DNA from: Escherichia coli O157 typing phage 15
Length of the DNA stretch: 64,000 nucleotides
Reading direction: 5' to 3' (one strand)
Sequence record: KP869113
The notes beneath the pieces were generated by a model, which did not search any database, had not been told where the DNA came from, and was given only the letters and a program-made list of their open reading frames with translations. Every line of letters begins with the position of its first letter. The first letter of the stretch is position 1. The position numbers were made by a program, and so were the translations under genes. Of this stretch, positions 2,834 through 33,473 are shown piece after piece.

Positions 2834-3496
2834 ACTTGGGGTGAAAATGATGGGGAACGCTGGACTATCTGGTCAGATGATTTTAAACGCTGGTTAAGTT
2901 CTAATTATTCTTCTGAACAAGATTGGTTAGAAGATGCAGGTGGGAGAATCTATGGGGTTCAGTGGAGAAACTTTGAAGGTCATAATGGTTGTGTTGTAGA
3001 CCAGCTAGAGGCCTTAGTAACGAAGATGAAGGGTGATATCACAGACCGTTACATGCTTGTTAATGCTTGGAATGCAGCAGATATTGCAGCAAACTCAATG
3101 GCTTTAGCACCTTGTCATGTTCTGTTTCAGATTTATATCACTAATGAGGGTGAAGTTGACTTACAGTGGTATCAACGTTCAGTAGACACCTTTTTAGGAC
3201 TTCCGTTTAATATTGCGTCTTATGGTTTCATCTTAGAAGTTCTTTGTAAGATGACTGGATACACTCCACGGTACTTGATAGGTGTCTTTGGAGATACTCA
3301 GATTTATCAGAACCATATGAAACAGGTTTATGAACTGATGAACAATGAAGAGTTCCATGCACCTACTTTTGAGATTGGTGTACAGCTTAACACCCTGAGT
3401 GACCTGAAACATCTTACTGCAAGTGATTTTATTGGTGGTATTAACAACTACCAACATGCAGGGAAGATTGAAGCACCTCTGTCAGTAGGTAAGTAA
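2834..3496 (+). CDS. thyA: Thymidylate synthase family protein (ThyA-like), 5' end lost in gap
   Basis: Translation carries ThyA hallmarks: YGVQWR, AWN, ALAPCH (catalytic Cys), QRSVDTFLGLPFNIASY, GDTQIY-NH; frame open from 2834; about 80 N-terminal residues missing. Confidence 0.8.
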   Translation, partial: TWGENDGERWTIWSDDFKRWLSSNYSSEQDWLEDAGGRIYGVQWRNFEGHNGCVVDQLEALVTKMKGDITDRYMLVNAWNAADIAANSMALAPCHVLFQIYITNEGEVDLQWYQRSVDTFLGLPFNIASYGFILEVLCKMTGYTPRYLIGVFGDTQIYQNHMKQVYELMNNEEFHAPTFEIGVQLNTLSDLKHLTASDFIGGINNYQHAGKIEAPLSVGK

Positions 3497-3504
3497 AAAC
3501 AAAA

Positions 3505-3540
3505 AAGGCTCCTTTTTACGGGAGCCTTAAATTTTATTTT
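3505..3540. terminator. Bidirectional rho-independent terminator between convergent thyA and the late operon
   Basis: GGCTCC-loop-GGAGCC hairpin flanked by A-run upstream and T-run downstream. Confidence 0.6.
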
Positions 3541-3905
3541 TCAGTATTCTTTGTGTTCTTTTCAGTAATAGCTTGCAAGGCTGATACTGATTGAGCCAGA
3601 TTGTTCACACTGTCAGAGAATTTATCAAGGGTTTTGGTAAGTTTTGCGTTTTCACCCTTAACATTCTCTAACTGAACTTTCTGGTTCTCCATCCCTAGCT
3701 GAATCAATCTCATGTCAGACTGTAAATCACGAATAGCTGAATAGTTACTTTTGGAATAATTATCTAGCTGCTGTAACTTTGTTGTGACAGACACTTCCTG
3801 CTTACCACTTGAGACTTGCATAGTGGTATACATCCCAATAACACTAAAAATACCAACTACAATTGCACCAATATTATTTTTAAAAGCTTCCTCTAGCCAC
3901 TTCAT
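3534..3905 (-). CDS. Membrane-anchored coiled-coil protein (123 aa)
   Basis: N-terminal hydrophobic helix IGAIVVGIFSVIGMY, then Q/K/E-rich helical region; last gene of the tail operon. Confidence 0.45.
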   Translation of the reverse strand: MKWLEEAFKNNIGAIVVGIFSVIGMYTTMQVSSGKQEVSVTTKLQQLDNYSKSNYSAIRDLQSDMRLIQLGMENQKVQLENVKGENAKLTKTLDKFSDSVNNLAQSVSALQAITEKNTKNTEK

Positions 3906-4100
3906 TTATTTCTCCCCCTTAAAAGCTTTTTCTAAGTTATCTACGAACTCATCATCAATAGGTGTATCTGTTTTACTCGCAAGGTATCTTGCAAGCTTAA
4001 AGAACACTTTCTCAATCATGTATTCACTTAGAAGGGATAAAATGAGTTTCCAGAAGAAGCTACCTAGATTTTTTAGAAGAATTGCTAGGATTGTAGACAT
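3906..4100 (-). CDS. Small membrane protein (64 aa), possible holin-like
   Basis: Hydrophobic segment ILAILLKNLGSFFWKLILSLL with charged C-terminus; function not established. Confidence 0.35.
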   Translation of the reverse strand: MSTILAILLKNLGSFFWKLILSLLSEYMIEKVFFKLARYLASKTDTPIDDEFVDNLEKAFKGEK

Positions 4101-4179: not shown

Positions 4180-6795
4180 TTAAGCAGTTCTTACCCAAGC
4201 CATTAACTTATAGAACTGGTTAGTAACACTAAATGCAGAACCAGAACCAGTACCACCTGTGTTACCGCTAACTGTGTGGCTGTGAGCACCAATATCAACA
4301 GTGTGGCTGTGGTTACCTGTTGTATTCGTTACACCAGACCAGTTTCTTGATGCGTTGAAGTTGACAGGGATACCATTAGTAAAGTTGTTACCAGTATACC
4401 CTTTAGAACCTGCCTGACTACCGAGGTAGAATGCACCACTTGCTGTGTAGAAGCTACTAGCGTCACTTCTGAAGTAACCAAATGAACCAGTAATCTCCAT
4501 AGTACCTCTGTTGTGGTTGTGGTTACCAGTTGTGCTAGAAGTCTTAGTACCATAGTCAAATGATGAAGTAGTAGCAGAGAAGCTGTGCGTGTGTGAAGGT
4601 AAGTTACCAACAGACAACGTTACAGAGTCTGAACCACCAGTTGTAGCAACATCTGAACCGTTTGCTGCTGCAATTCTAATAGTTCTACCAACACCATTAT
4701 TCAGGTACGTCCAAGTTAACCCAGGAAGTGCTGTGTTTGGGTTGACATTACTGTTAAACCACGTCACAATACCTACTGGATAGATTTTATTCAGGTCTGT
4801 AGAGTCACTAATTGCTTCTGCAATCTTCTGGTCAGTCTCTGCTTTAGTGTATGCACCAATATCTGAAGGGGTTGGTTTTTGCAAACTTGTGTAGTATTTT
4901 GCAATTGTACCCTTCACAATACCTTGTGGAGCATCATCAAATGTCTGTGGGACTTCAAACAACTGTACACTTGCATTACTAGAAGACTGAACCCTTGTCG
5001 TTGTGCTGTTTTGATACGTACCAGCAAGATAGTAAATATCATAGGTGTCTCCAGAAGTATTCACATAACCAATATCCCTGACAATGGTGTTCTCTGATGT
5101 TCTCCAAGCAACAACATTTAAGCCCTTTGGATTGTTATTTGAAGTTCGCAGAACAATTTCACATTTACCTGCTTGGTTTGGTGTATTAATATTAAAACCT
5201 GACCCACCAAATACCTCAATAACAGCAGTGGATGCTGATTGTGGCATCACAACAGTGGCAATTTTAGCCCACTTATCAGTGTTTCCCACATTGAAGCTAG
5301 TGCTTCTGATTCTTAGGTATCTACTATCACTAGCACTTTGCGTAAAGTATCTAGCATCTAAGTTAGAGAAATCTGAAGGTTGAACTTGTCCAGCAATAGT
5401 CAATGTTTTGTTAATGTATGATGTTGTATTCCCGAGAACCAATTGGGTTCCAGAATAACTGTTATTTAGGGTAACATCATTCGTGTCAGCACCACCAACA
5501 CCAATCCACCATCTTGATACATTAGTAGTGTCCACACCACGAATATATAATGGTCTATTCTGAGTAGAGTTTTTAACAATCAGACCTTCATTATCCGTAA
5601 CAACTGTCTGTACACCATTAAAAGTATTCCTTGCATTAGTTCTTGCAATCGTACTTAATGTTGCTACCGGAATATATCTAGAGTCAATGTTAGCCCAATC
5701 TGAAGGTTGGACTTGTCCAGTGATTTGCACAGTTTTATTGATACCAATAGTAGTACCTAGTGAAACCTGTGAACCTGTAAGGTAGTTATAAATGTTTAGA
5801 CGTGTCTCGTCAGAATCTGTACCAACATACCATTTATTTGTTCCATCAGACTTCTTACCGAGAATGTAAAGTGCTGTATTTGCATCAGTATTCTGCAAAG
5901 TAATGGCATTAGCATTCTTCTTAGCAACAAGGTTAGTGAAAGTGTTAGCACCTGTAAAAGTATTATTGCCAGCTAACTGTGCAAATCTCTGATTAGCTGC
6001 CGTCTGAGTAAAGTATCTAGCATCTAAGTTAGAGAAATCAGAAGGCTGAACTTGACCAGTGATTGCTAAAGACTTATTAACAGAGATATTACTTGCAACA
6101 GTCAAGACTGAGTTGTATTTGCTATTGTACAGCTTTACTTCGTCAGAGCCATTACTACCAATACCAACCCACCATCTAGCCGAACCATCTAGGTTTACAC
6201 CTTCAATATATTGTGCATTATTTGCATTTTGGTTTCTAAGGCGAAGTAAGTTAGCATCACCTTGAATGTTCTGAGTCCCAGAGAATGTGTTTGTGATAGC
6301 AAGTCTTGCATATCTTGCGTCATTCTCTTCATTAGTTCTCATACCAAGCTCATTAGGACTTGGCTTATTCAGAGTATGATAAACAGTTGCTGACCTTGAA
6401 GCATCTGCAATAGTTAGTTTAAGACCACTTGCGTTAAGTTTAAAAGTCTTTAAAACATCCCCAATAGTAATCTCAGAAGAACCTGTAGGGTCAAATACTG
6501 CCTTACCACCGTAAAGTAACTTGACAATACCTAAATCCCCCGTCATAGTGCTTCCAGCAATCTGAACAAACCTTTCTAGTTTGAAGGAAGCTAAGAAGTC
6601 TTGATAGGTCATTCTACGGTCTTCGTCACCCAACATTTCAGGTCTTTTCTTAACTCTGATGTGCAATAGGTCTTCTGAACGAATTGTGTCGATTGAGTTT
6701 AACTGACTCAATTTGTAATCTGCCATTATGAATTTTCCTCTTAAAAGGGGCTTTATAGCCCCTGTAAAGAAATTAAGCTGTTCTCTGCCACACAT
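4180..6795 (-). CDS. Long tail fibre protein (871 aa) with internal repeats and HxH tip
   Basis: Three about 100-aa repeats (NKxLxITGQVQPSDFSNLDARYFTQ); C-terminal HTHS/HSHT motifs (GNHSHTVDIGAHSHTV); C-terminus shared with the 6773..7948 protein. Confidence 0.7.
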   Translation of the reverse strand: MCGREQLNFFTGAIKPLLRGKFIMADYKLSQLNSIDTIRSEDLLHIRVKKRPEMLGDEDRRMTYQDFLASFKLERFVQIAGSTMTGDLGIVKLLYGGKAVFDPTGSSEITIGDVLKTFKLNASGLKLTIADASRSATVYHTLNKPSPNELGMRTNEENDARYARLAITNTFSGTQNIQGDANLLRLRNQNANNAQYIEGVNLDGSARWWVGIGSNGSDEVKLYNSKYNSVLTVASNISVNKSLAITGQVQPSDFSNLDARYFTQTAANQRFAQLAGNNTFTGANTFTNLVAKKNANAITLQNTDANTALYILGKKSDGTNKWYVGTDSDETRLNIYNYLTGSQVSLGTTIGINKTVQITGQVQPSDWANIDSRYIPVATLSTIARTNARNTFNGVQTVVTDNEGLIVKNSTQNRPLYIRGVDTTNVSRWWIGVGGADTNDVTLNNSYSGTQLVLGNTTSYINKTLTIAGQVQPSDFSNLDARYFTQSASDSRYLRIRSTSFNVGNTDKWAKIATVVMPQSASTAVIEVFGGSGFNINTPNQAGKCEIVLRTSNNNPKGLNVVAWRTSENTIVRDIGYVNTSGDTYDIYYLAGTYQNSTTTRVQSSSNASVQLFEVPQTFDDAPQGIVKGTIAKYYTSLQKPTPSDIGAYTKAETDQKIAEAISDSTDLNKIYPVGIVTWFNSNVNPNTALPGLTWTYLNNGVGRTIRIAAANGSDVATTGGSDSVTLSVGNLPSHTHSFSATTSSFDYGTKTSSTTGNHNHNRGTMEITGSFGYFRSDASSFYTASGAFYLGSQAGSKGYTGNNFTNGIPVNFNASRNWSGVTNTTGNHSHTVDIGAHSHTVSGNTGGTGSGSAFSVTNQFYKLMAWVRTA

Positions 6796-7948
6796 ACACT
6801 ACAAAAGATGGCTGCTCAACACTGAAAGCTTGACCACCACCAACAGAACCAGATGTCCCTGAGTGTGTATGCTCAGAGCTAGAAACAGTAACAGTGCCTG
6901 TATGACTGTGCGAACCAATATTAACAGTGTGGCTGTGAGCACCAATTGCGACAGTATGGCTATGAGCACCAGATGATGCAGTTGTACCTGAGAAGCTATG
7001 GGTGTGAGCACCAGCTAAATCAGTATACATAGCATTACCAACACCAGCATCAGCAGATGCAGTAATAGCGTTTGTGCCACCCCTATCATTACCCCTCATA
7101 GGGACTCTATGGTTGTGGTTACCAGCATTACTTGTTGTGCCACTAAACGTGTGAGTGTGAGCACCAGCACTATTAGTCGTTTTTGTACCGTAATCAAAAG
7201 TTGATGTACTTTTTGAACCATAATCAAAACTAGAGATAGATACACTTGCAGAGTGTGTATGACCACCACCTGTTAGATAGATAGAGTGAGTATGTGCTGG
7301 TAAATTATTATTTGTTAATGCTACAGTCTGAGAACCAAACGTTGAACCAACAGGTCTAGAATCTGTATCATAACCAACTAGTGCTCTACCTTTAGAAACT
7401 AACTCCCAAGTACCTCCACAAAGCAAGTAAGTGGATGGGTTAGCAGAGTTAACAGATAGATGAATAGTCCCTACTGGATATGACGCTTGGATAGCTTTGT
7501 ATAAATTATTAACTGCTTTCGCGGTAGCATACTTATCAGCATCTTCATTGTACAGATTAGATGTTGTCCAGTTCTGAACATTACTTAAACCAACCTGTGC
7601 TTTCGTTGTATTGTGTGGGTTACTTTTGTCGTCAATATGTTGCTGAATTAAGTTATTCACTTCCTCTGACGACATAATTTGTAGATTTGCTCTTGCCTCA
7701 GCAACACTTACAATATCTGACAAGTTATTAGCTGCAACTAATTGAAGAGAGTTAATAACATTATCAAGACCTACTTGTGATTTAGTTACACCATGAGGGT
7801 TATTCCTCAAAGATGCGTGAGGTGCTAACAACTGCTCAAGCGTACATCTTTTATCCTCAACACCTTGCTTAAGGTGGAAGATATCACTCAAATCAACTGG
7901 TAAGGCCGCTTGTGGCAAGGCACTAATTTGAATTTCACCTACTGCCAT
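6773..7948 (-). CDS. Tail fibre protein (391 aa) with fibre repeats, collar-like domain and HxH repeats
   Basis: NPHGVTKSQVGLDNV / NPHNTTKAQVGLSNV repeats; YPVG...LLCGGT collar-like motif; many AHTHS/AHSHT repeats; C-terminus ...YVWQRTA parallels the 871-aa fibre. Confidence 0.7.
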   Translation of the reverse strand: MAVGEIQISALPQAALPVDLSDIFHLKQGVEDKRCTLEQLLAPHASLRNNPHGVTKSQVGLDNVINSLQLVAANNLSDIVSVAEARANLQIMSSEEVNNLIQQHIDDKSNPHNTTKAQVGLSNVQNWTTSNLYNEDADKYATAKAVNNLYKAIQASYPVGTIHLSVNSANPSTYLLCGGTWELVSKGRALVGYDTDSRPVGSTFGSQTVALTNNNLPAHTHSIYLTGGGHTHSASVSISSFDYGSKSTSTFDYGTKTTNSAGAHTHTFSGTTSNAGNHNHRVPMRGNDRGGTNAITASADAGVGNAMYTDLAGAHTHSFSGTTASSGAHSHTVAIGAHSHTVNIGSHSHTGTVTVSSSEHTHSGTSGSVGGGQAFSVEQPSFVVYVWQRTA

Positions 7949-7950
7949 TA

Positions 7951-8253
7951 TTAAGCTCCTACATATTCATATGTGTAAAGGTTTCTTGTACTTGTTGATG
8001 CAGTCCCTGTCTCAGACTTAATGAGATTCCAGCCATTAGCCACTAAATCTGGTTGCTCAGTTGCATATGAACGAACTTCACCAACAGTGCCATTTACTTT
8101 ATTCAGCAGGTAGTTGATAATATAGTTGAACCACTGTCTACCCATAGGCTCACCCTTTAAAAGACCTGTCTCTTGAACTTCCGGTGGTGGTAAAACTTTT
8201 AACTGATTACCATCAGTATCTACTTCGTTTGTAGACCAATTTAGAACTGCCAT
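7951..8253 (-). CDS. Tail fibre / baseplate-associated protein (100 aa)
   Basis: Position between baseplate genes and fibre; translationally coupled. Confidence 0.4.
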
Positions 8254-27665: not shown

Positions 27666-27741
27666 TGGAGAATCCGAAGGGACTCGAACCCTTATAAACC
27701 TGTTTTGCAGACAGGCACATAGCCGTTTCTGTCACGGATTC
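27666..27741 (-). tRNA. tRNA-Cys (anticodon GCA)
   Basis: Acceptor GAATCCG/CGGATTC, T-arm GGGTTCGAGTCCC, anticodon stem CCTGT/ACAGG loop CTGCAAA, CCA encoded. Confidence 0.7.
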
Positions 27742-27745
27742 AAAT

Positions 27746-27838
27746 TGGAGGAAGATACCAGACTTGAACTGGTACACCGATTTCTCAGCTACTGGCAGTT
27801 TAGCAAACTGCTCCCTTACCTTTTAGGGTTAATCTTCC
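27746..27838 (-). tRNA. tRNA-Ser (anticodon GCU), long variable arm
   Basis: 93 nt; acceptor GGAAGAT/ATCTTCC, anticodon stem GCAGT/ACTGC loop TTGCTAA, T-arm CCAGTTCAAGTCTGG. Confidence 0.7.
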
Positions 27839-27840
27839 AT

Positions 27841-28575
27841 TTATTTCTGTAATGCGTTCTTCATTTCTGGTGTTGCAATAGTGTCAATTACACCAGTTTT
27901 ACAAGCATCATCAAACCAGTCTGGTAAGATACCTGCTAAGAACCCATTGATATTCGTTTTAAGGTACTCTGCAATAAGAGCAGCTTCTTCTTCAATCATC
28001 TGCACAACTTCATCTGCATAAGCTGTAATTTTTGAAATACCTTCATTAATCTTACTAACAGCTTGCTCAGCTAAATCAGAAATAGTATCAAGACCTTTGT
28101 CAATAGCATCTTGTAAGTCACTTAACACACCATTAACACTATCTAGTGCACTGTTAATCGTATCAATAGCTTTTTGACCATACTCTGTAGCAACACCCAT
28201 AATACCACTAAATGGTGTACAGCCAACTTGTTCACCTGCTGCACCCATAACATTAGAGTAACCTTTTGCTACCTGCATACGTGATGAAAACTCATCAATG
28301 GACTTTTGACCGTAATCTGTTAGTGTTTTGGTAGTTGATGTAGTGCTTGTCAGACTCGTGGTAAAGCTGTTAAGCAGAACTGTTGTAAGTCCAGCAGCAA
28401 CAATCTTATCCTTTACTGTAGGGTCTGATACAGAACTAATAGAGCTTACAAGTGATGTAGAGGCAGCTACGGTTCCACCGAGAACTGCTGCACCAGTAAT
28501 AAGGGGGTTAGAAAACCCTTTACCGGTTTTTAAGAGATTGAAAATCTCCTTACCTTGTTCTGTCATCTCTTTCAT
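27841..28575 (-). CDS. Hypothetical protein embedded in the tRNA array (about 244 aa)
   Basis: Track ORF 27841..28638 overlaps tRNA-Phe at its 5' end, so start moved to an internal ATG (28575 or 28566); Ser/Thr-rich, no recognised motif. Confidence 0.4.
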   Translation of the reverse strand: MKEMTEQGKEIFNLLKTGKGFSNPLITGAAVLGGTVAASTSLVSSISSVSDPTVKDKIVAAGLTTVLLNSFTTSLTSTTSTTKTLTDYGQKSIDEFSSRMQVAKGYSNVMGAAGEQVGCTPFSGIMGVATEYGQKAIDTINSALDSVNGVLSDLQDAIDKGLDTISDLAEQAVSKINEGISKITAYADEVVQMIEEEAALIAEYLKTNINGFLAGILPDWFDDACKTGVIDTIATPEMKNALQK

Positions 28576-28591
28576 TAAGCACCTTTGAAAT

Positions 28592-28667
28592 TGGTAGTCC
28601 AGTGGGATTTGAACCCTCTTCTCATGTTTTTCAGACACGCGCTTTAACCATATAAGCTACTTGGACT
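28592..28667 (-). tRNA. tRNA-Phe (anticodon GAA)
   Basis: T-arm GGGTTCAAATCCC, anticodon stem CGTGT/ACATG loop CTGAAAA. Confidence 0.6.
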
Positions 28668-28673
28668 ATAAAT

Positions 28674-28749
28674 TGGGGTGACCTACGGGATTTGAACCCG
28701 TATAGACCATGTTCACAGCATGGGTCATTACCATTTATGATAAGGCCAC
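28674..28749 (-). tRNA. tRNA-His (anticodon GUG)
   Basis: Acceptor GTGGCCT/AGGTCAC, T-arm ACGGGTTCAAATCCCGT, anticodon stem CCATG/CATGG loop CTGTGAA, CCA encoded. Confidence 0.65.
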
Positions 28750-28780
28750 ATTTAAGGACTCTCGTAAGAATCCTTAGAAG

Positions 28781-28856
28781 TGGCAGCGGCATAAGGATTT
28801 GAACCTTAATAGGACAGCTTCAGAGACTGCTGCATTGCCAGTTATGCTATACCGCT
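28781..28856 (-). tRNA. tRNA-Gln (anticodon CUG)
   Basis: Acceptor AGCGGTA/TGCCGCT, D-stem GCAT/ATGC, anticodon loop CTCTGAA, T-arm TAAGGTTCAAATCCTTA, CCA. Confidence 0.65.
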
Positions 28857-28861
28857 AAATT

Positions 28862-28940
28862 TGGTACTCCATATCGGATTCGAACCGATACATAACACAG
28901 ATTTTAAGTCTGGCCTCTCTGCCAATTGGAGTAATGGAGC
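28862..28940 (-). tRNA. tRNA-Leu (anticodon UAA), tentative; short variable arm
   Basis: Acceptor GCTCCAT/ATGGAGT, T-arm ATCGGTTCGAATCCGAT, anticodon loop CTTAAAA; D-arm CCAATTGGCAGAG as in the other Leu-type tRNAs. Confidence 0.5.
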
Positions 28941-28942
28941 AT

Positions 28943-29018
28943 TGGCGGGGGATGTTGGAATTGAACCAACTTCTTCGATTTCAAAGACCGAGGTTTTAAC
29001 CTTGTAAACTAATCCCCT
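28943..29018 (-). tRNA. tRNA-Gln (anticodon UUG)
   Basis: T-arm GTTGGTTCAATTCCAAC, anticodon stem TCGGT/ATCGA loop CTTTGAA, CCA encoded; possible 1-72 mismatch. Confidence 0.6.
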
Positions 29019-29026
29019 TTAAATCT

Positions 29027-29362
29027 TTACTTTCTTAGTGGATGAATAAAGAATGCCAACATAACTCTTTCCCTTGAAAATGCTCTTTCTTCTGGGACAA
29101 CACTTTTAAGTTTCCACCCAACATAAATTCTCCAGTAAAATTGTTTACCAAAGATTTTGATTGACGGCACAAAAGCGAATAATCCCCAAGCATTACTGTT
29201 CCACATTAGGAGATAACCAGTCTGATTATCTTCAGGGTTAGAACTTACGTTGATATTACCTTTCCACTTAGTAACATCTTTTACATCTCTTCCTAATACA
29301 TGGTAAGAGAAGTTATAAGCTTTGTTTCTCCAGAGCCATCCAACTCTCTGCATGTAGACACC
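29027..29362 (-). CDS. Membrane protein, 5' part lost in N gap (same gene as window 1..299)
   Basis: ORF 29027..29353 is the C-terminal part; 29286-29362 is identical to window 1-77. Confidence 0.45.
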   Translation of the reverse strand, partial: GVYMQRVGWLWRNKAYNFSYHVLGRDVKDVTKWKGNINVSSNPEDNQTGYLLMWNSNAWGLFAFVPSIKIFGKQFYWRIYVGWKLKSVVPEERAFSRERVMLAFFIHPLRK

Positions 29363-30082
29363 NNNNNNNNNNNNNNNNNNNNNNNNNNNNNNNNNNNNNN
29401 NNNNNNNNNNNNNNNNNNNNNNNNNNNNNNNNNNNNNNNNNNNNNNNNNNNNNNNNNNNNNNNNNNNNNNNNNNNNNNNNNNNNNNNNNNNNNNNNNNNN
29501 NNNNNNNNNNNNNNNNNNNNNNNNNNNNNNNNNNNNNNNNNNNNNNNNNNNNNNNNNNNNNNNNNNNNNNNNNNNNNNNNNNNNNNNNNNNNNNNNNNNN
29601 NNNNNNNNNNNNNNNNNNNNNNNNNNNNNNNNNNNNNNNNNNNNNNNNNNNNNNNNNNNNNNNNNNNNNNNNNNNNNNNNNNNNNNNNNNNNNNNNNNNN
29701 NNNNNNNNNNNNNNNNNNNNNNNNNNNNNNNNNNNNNNNNNNNNNNNNNNNNNNNNNNNNNNNNNNNNNNNNNNNNNNNNNNNNNNNNNNNNNNNNNNNN
29801 NNNNNNNNNNNNNNNNNNNNNNNNNNNNNNNNNNNNNNNNNNNNNNNNNNNNNNNNNNNNNNNNNNNNNNNNNNNNNNNNNNNNNNNNNNNNNNNNNNNN
29901 NNNNNNNNNNNNNNNNNNNNNNNNNNNNNNNNNNNNNNNNNNNNNNNNNNNNNNNNNNNNNNNNNNNNNNNNNNNNNNNNNNNNNNNNNNNNNNNNNNNN
30001 NNNNNNNNNNNNNNNNNNNNNNNNNNNNNNNNNNNNNNNNNNNNNNNNNNNNNNNNNNNNNNNNNNNNNNNNNNNNNNNNNN
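29363..30082. other. Assembly gap (720 N); true content is probably represented by window 77-721
   Basis: N run; flanks 29286-29362 and 30083-30160 match window 1-77 and 722-797. Confidence 0.9.
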
Positions 30083-30151
30083 CTCACTAAAGGACTTGAA
30101 CCTTTTTCTTCATCTTGTAAGGGTGATGTTTTACCATATAAACTAAGCGAG
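30083..30151 (-). tRNA. tRNA-Val (UAC), 3'-truncated duplicate of 716..790
   Basis: Identical to window 722-790; 3' end lies in the gap. Confidence 0.5.
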
Positions 30152-30248
30152 TATGAAAGAGGTCTGAAGTTGTGCCGCTAACTCAACTTCGTGGAATTTG
30201 TTACGGTCTTCAGTTGACTCAAAGCGGTCTTTCACTTGACCTCTGAAT

Positions 30249-30324
30249 TGGTGCTCCCACAAGGACTCGAACCCTGATAAGTTGCTTACAAGGCAACCGT
30301 AATAACCAATTATACGATAGGAGC
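30249..30324 (-). tRNA. tRNA-Thr (anticodon UGU)
   Basis: Acceptor GCTCCTA/TGGGAGC, T-arm CAGGGTTCGAGTCCTTG, anticodon stem GTTGC/GCAAC loop CTTGTAA, CCA. Confidence 0.7.
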
Positions 30325-30331
30325 ATTAATT

Positions 30332-30406
30332 TGGAGCATCCAGAGGGAATCGAACCCTCAACCTCAGTTTGGAAGACTGTAATTTTCCCGTTTAAACTAT
30401 GGATGC
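30332..30406 (-). tRNA. tRNA-Gly (anticodon UCC)
   Basis: 75 nt; acceptor GCATCCA/TGGATGC, T-arm GAGGGTTCGATTCCCTC, anticodon loop CTTCCAA. Confidence 0.65.
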
Positions 30407-30412
30407 ACTAAT

Positions 30413-30488
30413 TGGTGGAGTCACTGAGAATTGAACTCAGTTCCCAAGTTTGCAAAACTCGAATTTTAACCATATAAACTATGACCCC
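30413..30488 (-). tRNA. tRNA-Ala (anticodon UGC)
   Basis: Acceptor GGGGTCA/TGACTCC with G3-U70 wobble (Ala identity element), anticodon stem CGAGT/ACTTG loop TTTGCAA, T-arm CTGAGTTCAATTCTCAG, CCA. Confidence 0.7.
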
Positions 30489-30494
30489 ATTGTT

Positions 30495-30570
30495 TGGTAC
30501 AGGTGGAGGGAATTGAACCCATCGTCTTACTGATTAAGAGTCAGCCGCATAACCATTTTGCTACACCTGC
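30495..30570 (-). tRNA. tRNA-Lys (anticodon CUU); atypical T-stem
   Basis: Acceptor GCAGGTG/CACCTGT, anticodon stem GCTGA/TCAGT loop CTCTTAA; T-arm ATGGGTTCAATTCCCTC pairs only 3 bp canonically. Confidence 0.5.
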
Positions 30571-30577
30571 ATTAATT

Positions 30578-30654
30578 TGGTACACCTAGAGAGATTCGAA
30601 CTCACACTGAGCAGATTCTAAGTCTGCTGCCTCTACCAGTTGGGCTATAGGTGC
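30578..30654 (-). tRNA. tRNA-Leu (anticodon UAG), tentative; short variable arm
   Basis: 77 nt; acceptor GCACCTA/TAGGTGT, anticodon stem GCAGA/TCTGC loop CTTAGAA, T-loop TTCGAAT, CCA; D-arm CCCAACTGGTAGAGG. Confidence 0.5.
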
Positions 30655-30912
30655 ATTAAATCTTTTTAGAGAACTTCTAAGAACCTGAGCAACAAGGTTC
30701 CACAACAAGCGACTAATAACCTTAGAAGCCCTCTAAAAAGACCTAAATAGGTCTTTGCATAGTCTTGTTTAATCCGGTGACTAGAACCTTTGGAGAGCTT
30801 GATATTATCTCTTCTCCGTGACACCTACTAGGTGTTTTATCAGTGTGTACAACAATACACGCGGTATACCAAAGCAACATCCGAATGAAGCTTGGCTTTA
30901 AATCTTATTAGG
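30655..30912 (-). ncRNA. Structured spacer in tRNA array (candidate stable small RNA)
   Basis: 258 nt with no tRNA and no ORF of 60 aa or more; four local hairpins (GAACC..GGTTC, GACCT-AAAT-AGGTC, CACCT-ACT-AGGTG, GTGTA..TACAC). Confidence 0.3.
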
Positions 30913-31000
30913 CGGTAAGTAAAGGAGTCGAACCCTCACCGTATCTCTACAGTGGCAACTGTTTTCAAGACAGTTTGGCTACCATTAGCCGCTACCTACC
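30913..31000 (-). tRNA. tRNA-Ser (anticodon UGA), long variable arm; CCA not encoded
   Basis: 88 nt; acceptor GGTAGGT/ACTTACC, anticodon stem ACTGT/ACAGT loop CTTGAAA, T-loop TTCGACT. Confidence 0.6.
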
Positions 31001-31013
31001 CCTAATAAGACTG

Positions 31014-31418
31014 CTAAATACTTAACAGTCCTGCATGAACTTTCCTATGACAGTTTGAGCAAAGCACAACACACTTACGAACTTCACGCTTAATAGTTCC
31101 CCTAGAGTAAGTCTTAAGATTGCTTGGAGCAAAATCTTTCTCTTTAGGGTCTAAGTGATGAAAATCTAAAGCTACTGGCTCGGATTCACCACATATTCTG
31201 CATTTGCAAAACTTTTTATATCTACTAAGGAACTCTCTGTTTCTCTTTTTGTCATATTTTGCTCTAACTTTCCTTTTTGCTTTATAAGTAGGGTCTTCTT
31301 TGTATCTCTTTGCTGAGTACTTAGCTTTACAATCTTTGCAAGCAGACTGATAGCCATTCCCTCTTTTATGAAAGCAACTTAAAGGCTTCTCTTGAGAACA
31401 TTTTCTACAAAGTTTCAT
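31014..31418 (-). CDS. HNH homing endonuclease inserted in the tRNA array
   Basis: N-terminal CxxC...CxxC zinc ribbon; C-terminal HNH motif DFHHLDP...LCSNCHRKVH; lies between tRNA-Ser and tRNA-Trp. Confidence 0.75.
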   Translation of the reverse strand: MKLCRKCSQEKPLSCFHKRGNGYQSACKDCKAKYSAKRYKEDPTYKAKRKVRAKYDKKRNREFLSRYKKFCKCRICGESEPVALDFHHLDPKEKDFAPSNLKTYSRGTIKREVRKCVVLCSNCHRKVHAGLLSI

Positions 31419-31432
31419 ACAAGCACCTTTTC

Positions 31433-31503
31433 TGGCAGGGGTGTAGAGATTCGAACTCTAATCAAGAATTTTGGAGACTCTATTGCTGCCATAGCTCACC
31501 CCT
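31433..31503 (-). tRNA. tRNA-Trp (anticodon CCA), compact (71 nt)
   Basis: Acceptor AGGGGTG/CACCCCT, T-arm TAGAGTTCGAATCTCTA, anticodon stem AGAGT/ATTCT loop CTCCAAA, CCA encoded; short D-arm. Confidence 0.55.
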
Positions 31504-31651
31504 ATTAAAACTATAATTCGAAGCTTACCGTATTATCTCAACACTGTAAAGCCCCTTCTCAGATTATTTACATGTTCTGGAAAACATGAGATACAGACCA
31601 CCTCCCTACAGGAAGACCCGCTTAGGTCGTCTAAGTAATCTGCTAACTAAT
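31504..31651 (-). ncRNA. Structured spacer without canonical tRNA (candidate small RNA or degenerate tRNA)
   Basis: 148 nt; hairpin CTTAG-GTCGT-CTAAG; contains ATTCGAAG but no pairable T-stem or acceptor. Confidence 0.25.
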
Positions 31652-31728
31652 TGGCACACCCTACAGGATTCGAACCTGTAACTAACGATTTAGAAGACCG
31701 TTGCTCTATCCAATTGAACTAAGGGTGC
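31652..31728 (-). tRNA. tRNA-Arg (anticodon UCU)
   Basis: Acceptor GCACCCT/AGGGTGT, D-stem GTTC/GAGC, anticodon stem ACGGT/ATCGT loop CTTCTAA, T-arm ACAGGTTCGAATCCTGT, CCA. Confidence 0.7.
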
Positions 31729-32003
31729 ATTAACATTTTAAAGGGTACTCATTGCATTTAAGCCAAGCCCCATAAGGGATACCCTTTAGAATGTTGCCCA
31801 CCTTATTAATCATACCGTGGGCTAGTACGCCAAATTCTTTGATGAGGGATTGGAAGACCTCACTGGTGTTTAGCCTATCAAGCTACTGCCAGAAAAACAT
31901 TGTCGTTTGCATTTATTTTAAATTTGCAAAATAGACGCTACGCAACGAAAACTAAGGTTACTATAAAGTAGTCACATCTCAATGTCAACAACTTTATTGA
32001 AAT
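31729..32003 (-). ncRNA. Structured 275-nt spacer in tRNA array (candidate small RNA and/or internal promoter)
   Basis: No tRNA, no long ORF; hairpins AAGGGTA..TACCCTT and TTTGCA..TGCAAA. Confidence 0.25.
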
Positions 32004-32079
32004 TGGTACTGGTAGGTGGAATCGAACCACCGATGTTCCCTTATCAGGGGAGTGTTATAACCTTCTTAACTATACCAGC
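32004..32079 (-). tRNA. tRNA-Ile (anticodon GAU)
   Basis: Acceptor GCTGGTA/TACCAGT, T-arm GGTGGTTCGATTCCACC, anticodon loop CTGATAA, CCA. Confidence 0.65.
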
Positions 32080-32080
32080 T

Positions 32081-32157
32081 TGGAGGTTCAGATGGGAATC
32101 GAACCCACATTCATAGGGCTTATGAGACCCTTGCATTACCTTATCTGCGACTGAACC
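32081..32157 (-). tRNA. tRNA with anticodon CAU (Met, or Ile2 if lysidinylated)
   Basis: Acceptor GGTTCAG/CTGAACC, T-arm GTGGGTTCGATTCCCAT, anticodon stem AGGGT/GCCCT loop CTCATAA, CCA. Confidence 0.6.
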
Positions 32158-32235
32158 AGAATAAGTACCCTAGTTAGAGAAACTGTTGAGTGGGTGTTTC
32201 CAGCCGCGCAGGTGTTTCTTAGTTAAGGGTGAATT

Positions 32236-32311
32236 TGGTAGAAGTGGAGGGATTCGAACCCATCGCCTGTCAGATTAAAAGTCTGCCGCATCACCATTCT
32301 GCTACACTTCC
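32236..32311 (-). tRNA. tRNA-Lys (anticodon UUU); atypical T-stem, paralog of 30495..30570
   Basis: Acceptor GGAAGTG/CACTTCT, anticodon loop CTTTTAA, T-arm ATGGGTTCGAATCCCTC with only 3 canonical pairs. Confidence 0.5.
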
Positions 32312-32317
32312 ATTAAA

Positions 32318-32457
32318 TTATCTTTGTAGATAAGCTACCCAGACTTGCTTAAGGTCTGTAGCGATGTGCCTTTTTGGGTTTAAATCTAGAATTTACCCTT
32401 TCACCCTTTGTGGTCGCATACTCACAGGTAAGCTTAATAACTTATCTACAAAGATAA
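32318..32457. repeat. 17-bp perfect inverted repeat (TTATCTTTGTAGATAAG / CTTATCTACAAAGATAA) enclosing a 106-nt core
   Basis: Arms at 32318-32334 and 32441-32457; core has no tRNA and no ORF. Confidence 0.6.
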
Positions 32458-32511
32458 TTACCAGACCGTTGTTTATCATCTTAAGTGCTACCATTACACC
32501 AACTCGACATC

Positions 32512-32536
32512 TGCCGAGTGAAGGAATCGAACCTTC
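32512..32536 (-). pseudogene. tRNA-like 3' fragment (T-arm plus acceptor 3' strand) with no identifiable 5' half
   Basis: Canonical T-arm GAAGGTTCGATTCCTTC followed by ACTCGGC, but no complementary acceptor strand, D-arm or anticodon arm upstream. Confidence 0.3.
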
Positions 32537-32740
32537 GCCTTTTCTTTACCGGAGAAATAGATTGTTTAAGTTTTGCTGTAAACGGTCTTCTGTAAATTTG
32601 TTGAGCCAGACCAAGTTTTAAATTTTTCAAAATTAAATTGGCTTGAAATTTTAAATAACTTGCTGTATTTGGTCTTCTGCTCCTTTAAAGAATACTCGTA
32701 AGAACCCTTTAAGGGAGGGGCTAAATAGCCCTCTCAAAAT

Positions 32741-32818
32741 TGGCGGTTACGAAGGGATTTGAACCCTCATCATCTCCCGTGACAGGGGAGTATTTTAACC
32801 AAATTAAACTACATAACC
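32741..32818 (-). tRNA. tRNA-Asp (anticodon GUC)
   Basis: Acceptor GGTTATG/CGTAACC, anticodon stem CTCCC/GGGAG loop CTGTCAC, T-arm GAGGGTTCAAATCCCTT, CCA. Confidence 0.7.
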
Positions 32819-32823
32819 TTTAT

Positions 32824-32911
32824 TGGTGTGCCGTGTAGGAGTCGAACCTACCGAGTCTCAATGACAAGGGATTTACAGTCCCCACCGCTACCATCTACGG
32901 GATAACGACAC
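32824..32911 (-). tRNA. tRNA-Tyr (anticodon GUA), long variable arm
   Basis: 88 nt; acceptor GTGTCGT/ACGGCAC, anticodon stem GGGGA/TCCCT loop CTGTAAA, T-arm GTAGGTTCGACTCCTAC, CCA. Confidence 0.7.
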
Positions 32912-32980
32912 ATTTAATTTCTATTCAGGCTAAGGACTTGTACCTTACAAATCGGTGAGCAATCGCTTCTCTCCTAAATT

Positions 32981-33057
32981 TGGCGGTTAGTCAGGGATTC
33001 GAACCCTGTGCCATTCGCTTAACAGGCGACCGCACATACCTTATGTGCTTCCTAACC
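32981..33057 (-). tRNA. tRNA-Asn (anticodon GUU)
   Basis: D-stem GCAC/GTGC, anticodon loop CTGTTAA, T-arm CAGGGTTCGAATCCCTG, CCA. Confidence 0.65.
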
Positions 33058-33141
33058 ATGTTTAGTATTACCAGACCGTATATTTCAATTTTTTCCGCTA
33101 AAAATTTAATAAATATTGCTGTAAACGGTCTTCTGTAAATT
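33058..33141 (-). repeat. Inter-tRNA spacer hairpin element (ACCAGACCGT ... ACGGTCTTCTG family)
   Basis: Stem arms AGACCGT/ACGGTCT around an AT-rich loop; minus strand also reads TTTACAGAAGACC (-35-like). Confidence 0.5.
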
Positions 33142-33218
33142 TGGAGGCGGGTGCAGGAGTCGAACCTGCCGATACCATGCTAATGAGACATGTGAGACGC
33201 CCTTTCTCTATACCCGCA
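33142..33218 (-). tRNA. tRNA with anticodon CAU (Met / initiator / Ile2 candidate), non-canonical features
   Basis: T-arm GCAGGTTCGACTCCTGC, anticodon stem CATGT/GCATG loop CTCATTA, CCA encoded; position 1-72 apparently unpaired. Confidence 0.5.
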
Positions 33219-33308
33219 ATTCTTAATGACCAGACCAAATATCTTCTTTGTCCGATTAACTTTCAGATGAGTAGATTAAGTTTGCTGTAATTGGTCTTCT
33301 GTCAAAAC
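33219..33308 (-). repeat. Inter-tRNA spacer hairpin element, second copy with compensatory changes
   Basis: Arms AGACCAA/TTGGTCT replace AGACCGT/ACGGTCT of the first copy, preserving pairing; minus strand reads TTGACAGAAGACC. Confidence 0.5.
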
Positions 33309-33386
33309 TGGCGTTCCAGAAGGGATTTGAACCCTCAAATATCCACTTTGAAAGAGTGGTGACTTTACCATTTTGTCTACTGGAAC
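33309..33386 (-). tRNA. tRNA-Glu (anticodon UUC)
   Basis: Acceptor GTTCCAG/CTGGAAC, anticodon stem CCACT/AGTGG loop CTTTCAA, T-arm GAGGGTTCAAATCCCTT, CCA. Confidence 0.7.
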
Positions 33387-33393
33387 ATTAATT

Positions 33394-33473
33394 TGGTCTC
33401 CGTTGAAGGATTTGAACCCTCGACCCCTTGCTCCCAAAGCAAGTGCTGCTAAACCAGACTGAGCTAAACGGAG
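33394..33473 (-). tRNA. tRNA-Pro (anticodon UGG)
   Basis: Acceptor CTCCGTT/AACGGAG, anticodon stem CTTGC/GCAAG loop TTTGGGA, T-arm GAGGGTTCAAATCCTTC, CCA. Confidence 0.7.

Follow-up and report, generated by a model that had tools for sequence, protein, structure and literature searches.

Two adjacent baseplate fibre genes with T4 gp37-type tips and signs of cassette exchange in an Escherichia coli O157 typing phage

Positions 4180-7948 of the window (the whole stretch analysed, 64,000 nucleotides of Escherichia coli O157 typing phage 15, record KP869113) very probably hold both baseplate fibre genes of the phage, which would encode homotrimeric fibres with T4 gp37-type tips and would exchange cassettes by recombination at conserved junctions. 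This region is 99.9% identical in DNA to wV8 and to O157 typing phages 1, 8, 11 and 12, and by its sequence the source phage is a Felixounavirus, essentially phage wV8 or O157 typing phage 1. The same genes are annotated in wV8 as tail fibres 82 and 83, and neither in wV8 nor in the four typing phages do they differ in substance from those described here. The fibre genes, the gp37-like HxH tips of their products and the architecture with two fibres are already known, having been published for the Felix O1 group in 2009, 2010, 2015 and 2025; the evidence for cassette shuffling is the sole, modest addition to published knowledge.

Both fibre genes are on the minus strand and adjacent, in ORFs at 6773-7948 (391 aa) and 4180-6795 (871 aa, the maximal ORF). 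The features are listed below from high to low coordinates; STF and LTF denote the short and the long tail fibre.

7951..8253, minus strand: LTF platform protein, 100 aa, to which the LTF attaches on the baseplate
6773..7948, minus strand: STF gene, 391 aa, identified as wV8 gp82, orthologue of Bas63 gp26
7520..7948, minus strand: STF aa 1-143, putative N-terminal baseplate-binding part, then a helical region
7304..7519, minus strand: collar domain of the STF, about aa 144-215, T4 gp10 C-terminal / gp37 collar type
6776..7303, minus strand: STF needle-head-needle tip, aa 216-391, ending ...AFSVEQPSFVVYVWQRTA
6743..6762, minus strand: intergenic hairpin GGGGCT-ATAA-AGCCCC, then TTTT, read directly from the sequence
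6724..6742, minus strand: Shine-Dalgarno AAGAGG and LTF ATG start (6726-6724)
4180..6726, minus strand: LTF gene, 848 aa, identified as wV8 gp83, orthologue of Bas63 gp27
6328..6726, minus strand: LTF aa 1-133, conserved N-terminal part, putatively baseplate (LTF-platform) binding, and first shaft domain
5998..6327, minus strand: repeat unit 1, aa 134-243, gp37_trimer / beta-helix type
6008..6039: exact 32-nt repeat, end of unit 1
5659..5997, minus strand: repeat unit 2, aa 244-356
5332..5658, minus strand: repeat unit 3, aa 357-465
5342..5373: exact 32-nt repeat, end of unit 3; encodes DFSNLDARYFT
4903..5316, minus strand: LTF mid module, aa 471-608, beta-sandwich domain, exchangeable cassette
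4612..4902, minus strand: LTF collar region, aa 609-705, with gp37_C fragments and a Gp10_C match below the Pfam cutoff
4183..4611, minus strand: LTF needle-head-needle tip, aa 706-848, ending ...AFSVTNQFYKLMAWVRTA

The STF matched the tail fibre family phrog_2097 (E 1e-138) and is 75% identical to Bas63 gp26 over 391 aa. The LTF matched phrog_4277 (E 0) and is 61% (aa 1-471) and 70% (aa 609-848) identical to Bas63 gp27, so that similarity to the Bas63 pair includes the N-terminal baseplate-binding parts; an NCBIfam search returned no match for either protein. The fibre genes directly follow those for wedge 2, wedge 1 and the LTF platform, the order found in Bas63 (JohannRWettstein). The 100-aa ORF matched PDB 9NDY chain S, 'LTF platform protein (gp025)' (E 9.9e-59), and the neighbouring 284-aa ORF matched wedge protein 1 (9NDY chain J, Bas63 gp24; E 5e-157). 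Both fibre ORFs are intact, their conservation extends over more than 1000 database proteins, and neither is a pseudogene, a circumstance that the initial annotation had named as counting against its reading.

In the 2025 cryo-EM study of Bas63, the STF and LTF are separate trimers, the former attached to wedge 2A and the latter to the LTF platform, and each has a collar, needle and head resembling those of gp37, the needle bearing HxH motifs; the fibre densities were too weak for side-chain modelling and support this architecture at the domain level (PMC12609058). The earlier proposal of two receptor-binding tips per virion was thus correct, as both are separate virion fibres in this close relative. 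wV8 Gp83 was found in virions by SDS-PAGE and MS, as the largest virion band with 44% MS coverage (PMC2674420), and VpaE1 gp74 and gp75 are listed among MS-identified structural proteins (PMC4690856). MS of Felix O1 detected gp77 and, weakly and with 9% coverage, gp76 (PMC3185647); it is these gp76 data that hint at the presence of the STF in virions.

The 871-aa protein of the initial annotation has a true length of 848 aa, the ORF being 23 codons longer than the annotated gene. The start at 6726 matches the wV8 CDS boundary and has AAGAGG and the hairpin upstream, and the phrog_4277 match begins at residue 24 of the 871-aa ORF. With this ATG, the STF and LTF genes do not overlap. The hairpin between them, annotated in wV8 as a Rho-independent terminator, was recognised by eye and was not picked up by a simple terminator scan; judged from its sequence, it is possibly a weak terminator or attenuator.

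The initial annotation had described two tail-fibre genes with HxH arrays, and this was borne out: there are nine HxH motifs in the STF and four in the LTF, all in the C-terminal parts. At 2% histidine, 0.16 and 0.34 motifs would be expected (Poisson P ~1e-13 and ~4e-4, respectively); the STF contains 24 histidines (6.1%). The proposed pattern (A/G)H(S/T)H(S/T) fits six of the nine STF motifs and one of the four LTF motifs, the general form being xH[S/T/N]Hx. Similarly, the C-terminal elements AFSV...W.RTA occur in both proteins, and the full AFSV.QP.F..Y.W.RTA said to be common to them is found in the 391-aa protein only. The C-terminal regions of STF and LTF are 31% identical over 270 aa (E 5e-27) and the longest DNA run shared by the tips is 20 nt, values that rule out a recent duplication of the tips.

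Tips were assigned to the gp37 type by sequence homology to gp37 residues 785-1026. In phmmer searches against the PDB, STF residues 145-362 matched the gp37 tip 2XGF with E 1.8e-26 and LTF residues 706-827 with E 4.1e-6. Homology to T4 gp37 extends across collar, needle and returning strand, with FDYGTK and IGAHSHT blocks in common; all seven gp37 HxH motifs pair with STF motifs and three pair with LTF motifs. In both proteins the motifs lie on the outgoing and returning strands that flank the head: four before and five after the short STF head domain (aa 281-314, window 7007-7108), and two before (H712, H736) and two after (H806, H815) the LTF head domain (aa 739-805, window 4312-4512). In their HxH layers both fibres depart from T4 gp37, which has seven, and from Bas63, with seven in the STF and six in the LTF. 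T4 also differs in having a single gp37-type tip, on a four-protein long fibre, whereas here both fibres consist of a single protein and both carry such a tip. The short fibre of T4 is a different protein, gp12, no chain of which was among the STF PDB matches at E <= 0.01; these were to gp37 and gp10 only.

By analogy with gp37, each chain would run down a six-stranded needle, form a small receptor-touching head domain and return up the needle. Each HxH motif, contributed by three chains, would place six histidines around one metal ion, giving about nine predicted metal sites in the STF and about four in the LTF. The T4 gp37 needle coordinates iron (PMC12609058). Thus, the initial reading of the HxH arrays as a metal-coordinating tip type holds in that both tips are T4 gp37-type needles, which presumably bind metal as well.

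STF residues 1-143 are near-identical to Bas63 gp26, with helices predicted at 37-46, 66-106 and 143-156, and probably bind the baseplate, as in the Bas63 cryo-EM structure (PMC12609058). Residues 154-276 matched Pfam Gp10_C (PF21939, E 2.8e-18), and PDB matches to the collar were 2FKK and 5HX2 (gp10) and 2XGF. The whole STF, modelled as a monomer by AF2 from an alignment of 56 sequences, had a pLDDT of 66.7 and a pTM of 0.30, and residues 150-180 reached a pLDDT of ~90; a Foldseek search of this model against the PDB gave nothing at E <= 0.001. Such a poor monomer model is expected for an intertwined trimer. In the STF it is the head region that has diverged from Bas63, with 33-43% DNA identity at 7168-6989.

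In the LTF, aa 1-133 share at least 93% identity across all 118 homologues in the alignment and, from the Bas63 study (PMC12609058), would bind the LTF platform. The three shaft repeats that follow correspond to the three ~100-aa repeats of the initial annotation and are units of ~110 aa. Pfam gp37_trimer (PF20744) matched three stretches (E 2.1e-75; 249 bits vs a cutoff of 21.7), and we defined the units by means of GQVQPSD anchors together with an HMM; a BLASTP self-comparison of the LTF gave the identity match only. The units are mutually 35-45% identical in protein and 52-58% in DNA. Near-identical DNA segments had been proposed as well, and a 32-nt exact run does recur 666 nt apart, at 5342-5373 and 6008-6039; similarity is limited to the 3' boundary blocks of the units (5339-5414, 5666-5741 and 6005-6080), which are 71-83% identical.

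The mid module was modelled by AF2 with a pLDDT of 78.8 and a pTM of 0.78. Its best Foldseek match was 6TGF (WceF; E 1.5e-6, TMq 0.66), and the tailspike 6E1R was also matched. Prophage tail fibres of Salmonella and E. coli contain modules 40-50% identical to it, and it is replaced in LTFs of 785-790 aa, including that of Bas63, whose module is shorter and unrelated to the 138-aa beta-sandwich found here. The collar is at least 90% identical in all homologues. The head is a variable cassette (8-100% identity) between conserved needle strands; the head domains of Bas63 are unrelated in sequence to those here.

Conserved and variable blocks in the long fibre were noted for wV8 (PMC2674420), and in Felix O1, DNA repeats are common to both fibre genes (gp76 and gp77), whose C-termini are both gp37 homologues (PMC3185647). 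Among the 118 homologues, identity is at least 84-93% in the N-terminus, collar and returning needle strand, and is bimodal in the unit cores, mid module and head. The units fall into 23 types, which in the 121 proteins combine into 41 three-unit architectures, and all four combinations of common type pairs occur. DNA identity falls from ~95% to ~45% exactly at unit boundaries; in phage H12 the core of unit 2 is replaced, with 48-67% DNA identity inside flanks of 93-95% identity. In O157 phage HY02 the STF and LTF tips are 98-100% identical to those in the window (100% for the LTF head) and the unit cores only 23-46%. Unit 1 of Bas63 is the closest relative of unit 3 here, with 64% core identity, as compared to 29% for Bas63 unit 3. 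These patterns support a role of the conserved unit boundaries as recombination junctions, at which unit cores appear to have been exchanged, duplicated or, rarely, deleted. Homologous recombination at the GQVQPSDxxNxDxRY unit boundaries, the collar and the HxH needle strands would then generate the variation from phage to phage, swapping five cassettes independently (units 1 to 3, mid module and head) and almost never altering repeat number. For exchange of the head cassette there is a precedent in T-even phages, where recombination at 'His boxes' reportedly swaps adhesin domains, in work attributed to Tetart et al. from 1996 and 1998.

How the two fibres work together can be read in several ways. 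The LTF head may make a first, reversible contact with LPS, after which the STF, folded along the sheath, would bind and make attachment irreversible. In Bas63, the STF is folded along the sheath at full occupancy and LTF occupancy varies, which the authors read as T4-like sequential use; they draw the analogy to gp12 as a second, shorter fibre that remains stowed up to the baseplate change, and find that gp12 differs in attachment site and fold (PMC12609058). By analogy with T4, such sequential use would be at least as likely as the dual receptor specificity first suggested, in which the tips bind different receptors independently, either can start infection and host range is the union of the two. 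Parallel specificity of this kind is consistent with tips that are old paralogues, given their low identity and short shared DNA run, with head sizes of 34 (STF) and 67 aa (LTF), and with variation of both heads between phages with different hosts. It fits less well with the stowed STF of Bas63, and the O157 phages HY02 and wV8 have both tips in common, as would suit joint rather than alternative use; we consider it rather unlikely. The other suggestion, one fibre plus a tip-assembly partner, would make the 391-aa protein a partner or adhesin of the 848-aa fibre, comparable to gp38 in T4 or T2. Its gene does adjoin the long fibre gene and tip motifs are shared, but it lies upstream, not downstream, and its product has its own conserved baseplate-binding N-terminus and an orthologue, Bas63 gp26, seen as a separate 430-Å trimer on wedge 2A (PMC12609058). 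Searches of Pfam, PHROGs and NCBIfam placed the protein in tail fibre families only, with no chaperone-family or gp38-type adhesin similarity, and no gp38-like gene was found after the fibre genes, where two small ORFs (3534-4100) had no informative family match. A partner role is therefore extremely improbable.

A second question is what the LTF repeats are for. The initial annotation saw in them a substrate for recombinational length variation, and a main role in altering fibre length through unequal recombination is compatible with the 32-nt exact repeat and the similar boundary blocks. It is also compatible with P0055 (740 aa), which lacks exactly one unit, in register, and rests on one metagenomic contig, and with P0066 and P0063, in which a unit is duplicated within the gene at a second position. 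Assembly collapse is an unlikely source of the two-unit P0055, as its unit 2 is of the ordinary unit-2 type and unit-core DNA is <60% identical. Of the top 120 homologue clusters, each with at least 68% identity, 119 have three units and one has two, and full-length homologues fall into narrow length classes that are set by the mid and head cassettes. Repeat number was likewise invariant among 18 species, and docking of the folded fibre on the sheath probably constrains its length (both from PMC12609058, the latter as our reading of it). Length change as the main function is thus very improbable, and the claim of length variation finds weak support; what stands is that the unit boundaries act as recombination junctions. 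We tentatively propose, as a possibility that is less likely than not, that unit, mid and head junctions are kept as recombination linkers, the LTF being a five-slot cassette system whose shaft units and tip are shuffled under selection.

The 'unexpected' variability of the shaft was left open in the Bas63 study, with three other hypotheses (PMC12609058), and the linker reading, if true, would explain it. The cassette pattern offers a recombination-based answer to the strong variation of shaft repeats between species. If the reading holds, selection on the shaft could act through surface-glycan contact, by the units or the beta-sandwich module, or through targeting by host defences. For phage engineering, the sharp conserved junctions may serve as natural splice points for head-domain swaps, and the mid and shaft modules could be exchanged likewise, for retargeting Felix O1-type phages.

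Over the 3.8 kb that carry the two tail fibre genes, DNA identity to Escherichia phage wV8 and to O157 typing phages 1, 8, 11 and 12 is 99.9%, and a total of 235 phage records match, nearly all from Felixounavirus. In wV8, tail fibre gene 82 corresponds to the short tail fibre (STF) and gene 83 to the long tail fibre (LTF). Gene order around the fibre genes is shared with phage Bas63. Two upstream ORFs match solved chains of the Bas63 baseplate, that of 100 aa 'LTF platform protein gp025' (9NDY_S, E 1e-58) and that of 284 aa 'wedge protein 1 gp024' (E 5e-157). STF is 75% identical to Bas63 gp26, and identity between LTF and Bas63 gp27 is 61% over aa 1-471 and 70% over aa 609-848. The features of the gene pair are:

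6773-7948, minus strand: STF ORF, 391 aa
6775-6773, minus strand: STF stop codon TAA, read from the sequence
6762-6743, minus strand: GC-rich intergenic hairpin, GGGGCT-ATAA-AGCCCC followed by TTTT, a terminator in the wV8 annotation
4180-6795, minus strand: maximal LTF ORF, 871 aa, too long at its 5' end
LTF aa 134-243, 244-356 and 357-465: three repeat units of 109-113 aa each
4903-5316, minus strand: LTF mid module, aa 471-608, an exchangeable beta-sandwich

The initial annotation had located and described the genes essentially correctly, but its 871-aa LTF was overextended. The sequence AAGAGG lies between the hairpin and an ATG at 6726, the same start is used in the wV8 record, and the match to PHROG 4277 begins at residue 24 of the 871-aa ORF. 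Thus, LTF is 848 aa long and its gene does not overlap that of STF. The intergenic hairpin could set the relative amounts of STF and LTF transcript.

Directly after the LTF gene lie two small conserved minus-strand ORFs, at 3534-3905 (phrog_4038; its 123 aa include a hydrophobic N-terminal segment and a coiled coil) and 3906-4100 (64 aa; phrog_402), in the same synteny as in Bas63, HY02 and H12; fibre assembly or lysis is a possible role for them. A two-way terminator-like hairpin at 3505-3528, the counterpart of a terminator annotated in wV8, separates the 123-aa ORF from a convergent thymidylate synthase gene. The readable ORF of the latter (3026-3496) accounts for no more of the Pfam profile than positions 120-266; the N-terminal part of the gene would be expected where a run of N occupies 2734-2833. 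Three further 100-base runs of N are found at 798-897, 1426-1525 and 1908-2007, and one of 720 bases (29363-30082) lies inside the tRNA cluster. The window holds 28 tRNA genes, at 556-790 and 27666-33473 (minus strand), most of them in that cluster. Such a set is typical of Felix O1-like phages, with 22-23 tRNAs reported for Felix O1 and wV8.

Both fibres carry HxH arrays and related C-termini, as had been noticed from the sequence. STF contains nine HxH motifs (6.1% histidine) and LTF four, at residues 712, 736, 806 and 815, as compared to 0.16 and 0.34 expected at 2% histidine (P about 1e-13 and 4e-4, respectively). Their C-terminal regions are 31% identical over 270 residues (E 5e-27) and have AFSV...W.RTA in common. 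STF matched the T4 gp37 receptor-binding tip (2XGF) with an E value of 1.8e-26, all seven gp37 HxH motifs aligning with STF motifs, and LTF matched it at 4.1e-6. Pfam searches identified three gp37_trimer repeats in LTF (E 2e-75); both proteins also matched the Gp10_C collar domain, STF alone above the curated cutoff. The motifs are divided between the outgoing and returning strands as 4+5 in STF and 2+2 in LTF, as compared to 3+4 in T4, and their number among homologues is 6-11 (mostly nine) for STF and 2, 4 or 6 for LTF. Motifs would be added or lost pairwise on the two strands, so that needle length varies. If, in each HxH layer, the trimer contributes six histidines that together hold one metal, nine sites are predicted in STF and four in LTF.

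Published work on wV8 and related phages points to fibres of both kinds in virions. In the cryo-EM study of Bas63, gp26 is a 430-Å short tail fibre on wedge 2A and gp27 a 630-Å long tail fibre on a gp9-like platform, the latter with beta-helix repeat domains as well; both end in a collar, an HxH-bearing needle and a head like those of gp37 (PMC12609058). At the level of sequence, the matches of STF and LTF to 2XGF and to the Pfam families agree with this description. Gp83 was the largest virion band of wV8, with 44% MS coverage (PMC2674420), gp77 was abundant and gp76 detected at 9% coverage in Felix O1 virions (PMC3185647), and VpaE1 gp74 and gp75 were among the MS-identified proteins in a 2015 report that pointed out gp37 homology (PMC4690856).

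The initial annotation had offered two readings of the pair, dual receptor specificity or one fibre with its tip-assembly partner. The second, in which STF would assist assembly of the LTF tip, is contradicted by the position and domain content of STF and by the Bas63 structure. Our results or those in print show that each baseplate position has two distinct fibres, both with a gp37-type tip. Receptor contact would be made by the head domains (STF aa 281-314, LTF aa 739-805). By analogy with T4 and with Bas63 occupancy data, LTF probably binds first and STF, stowed on the sheath, second; alternatively, the two tips may act in parallel as dual specificities. The observation is real and was correctly interpreted in its main point, but these are published genes of a published phage, with their architecture solved in a close relative.

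The three LTF repeats of about 100 aa and their matching DNA segments were also found. Pairwise, the units are 35-45% identical in protein and 52-58% in DNA, and DNA similarity is confined to boundary blocks at 5339-5414, 5666-5741 and 6005-6080 (71-83% identity), including a 32-nt exact run at 5342-5373 and 6008-6039. DNA repeats common to both fibre genes had been described in the Felix O1 paper (PMC3185647). The repeats had been proposed as a source of length variation. However, when an HMM of the units was run over the best 120 LTF homologue clusters, exactly three units were found in 119, and homologue lengths form classes governed by other modules, so such variation is rare, in line with the findings of the Bas63 authors (PMC12609058). 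The exception is P0055 (740 aa), from a single metagenomic contig, in which unit 3 has been lost in register and two units remain.

Units are clearly exchanged all the same. Clustering of unit cores at 70% identity in 121 proteins gave 23 unit types in 41 three-unit architectures. All four combinations of common unit-type pairs occur, and some types are found at two positions; unit 3 of the window LTF is most similar to Bas63 unit 1. P0066 has the same core in units 2 and 3, and in P0063 the cores of units 1 and 3 match at 92% identity. These two homologues and P0055 are rare natural variants that, taken together, directly point to recombination within the gene. Across all 118 aligned LTF homologues, identity does not fall below 84-93% in the N-terminus, collar and returning needle strand, whereas it is bimodal in the three unit cores, mid module and head. 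DNA identity to phage H12 is 93-100% throughout, except in the unit 2 core (48-67%). Against HY02, it falls to 33-47% in unit cores but reaches 90-92% at the boundaries, and both the tip and the entire STF gene are 98-100% identical.

The AF2 model of the mid module is a beta-sandwich (pLDDT 78.8, pTM 0.78) resembling a domain of the tailspike-like Pantoea WceF (6TGF, E 1.5e-6, TMq 0.66) and, as a second likeness, an Acinetobacter phage tailspike (6E1R). Prophage fibres of Salmonella and E. coli contain related modules that are 40-50% identical to it; Bas63-type fibres have an unrelated, shorter module at this position. When a Felixounavirus was evolved on S. Infantis, its long fibre acquired variants at residues 497 and 534 (PMC6669636), which would lie within the mid module if the numbering corresponds. 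The module may be a second glycan-binding site.

The pattern of exchange among the LTF sequences bears the hallmark of homologous recombination at conserved junctions. The same principle applies in T-even phages, where, according to Tetart et al., adhesins are reportedly swapped at His boxes. The Bas63 study gives three other explanations for shaft variability, and recombination is absent from that paper (PMC12609058). The recombination-cassette pattern of the long fibre is the one, modest addition made here to what is known of these phages.
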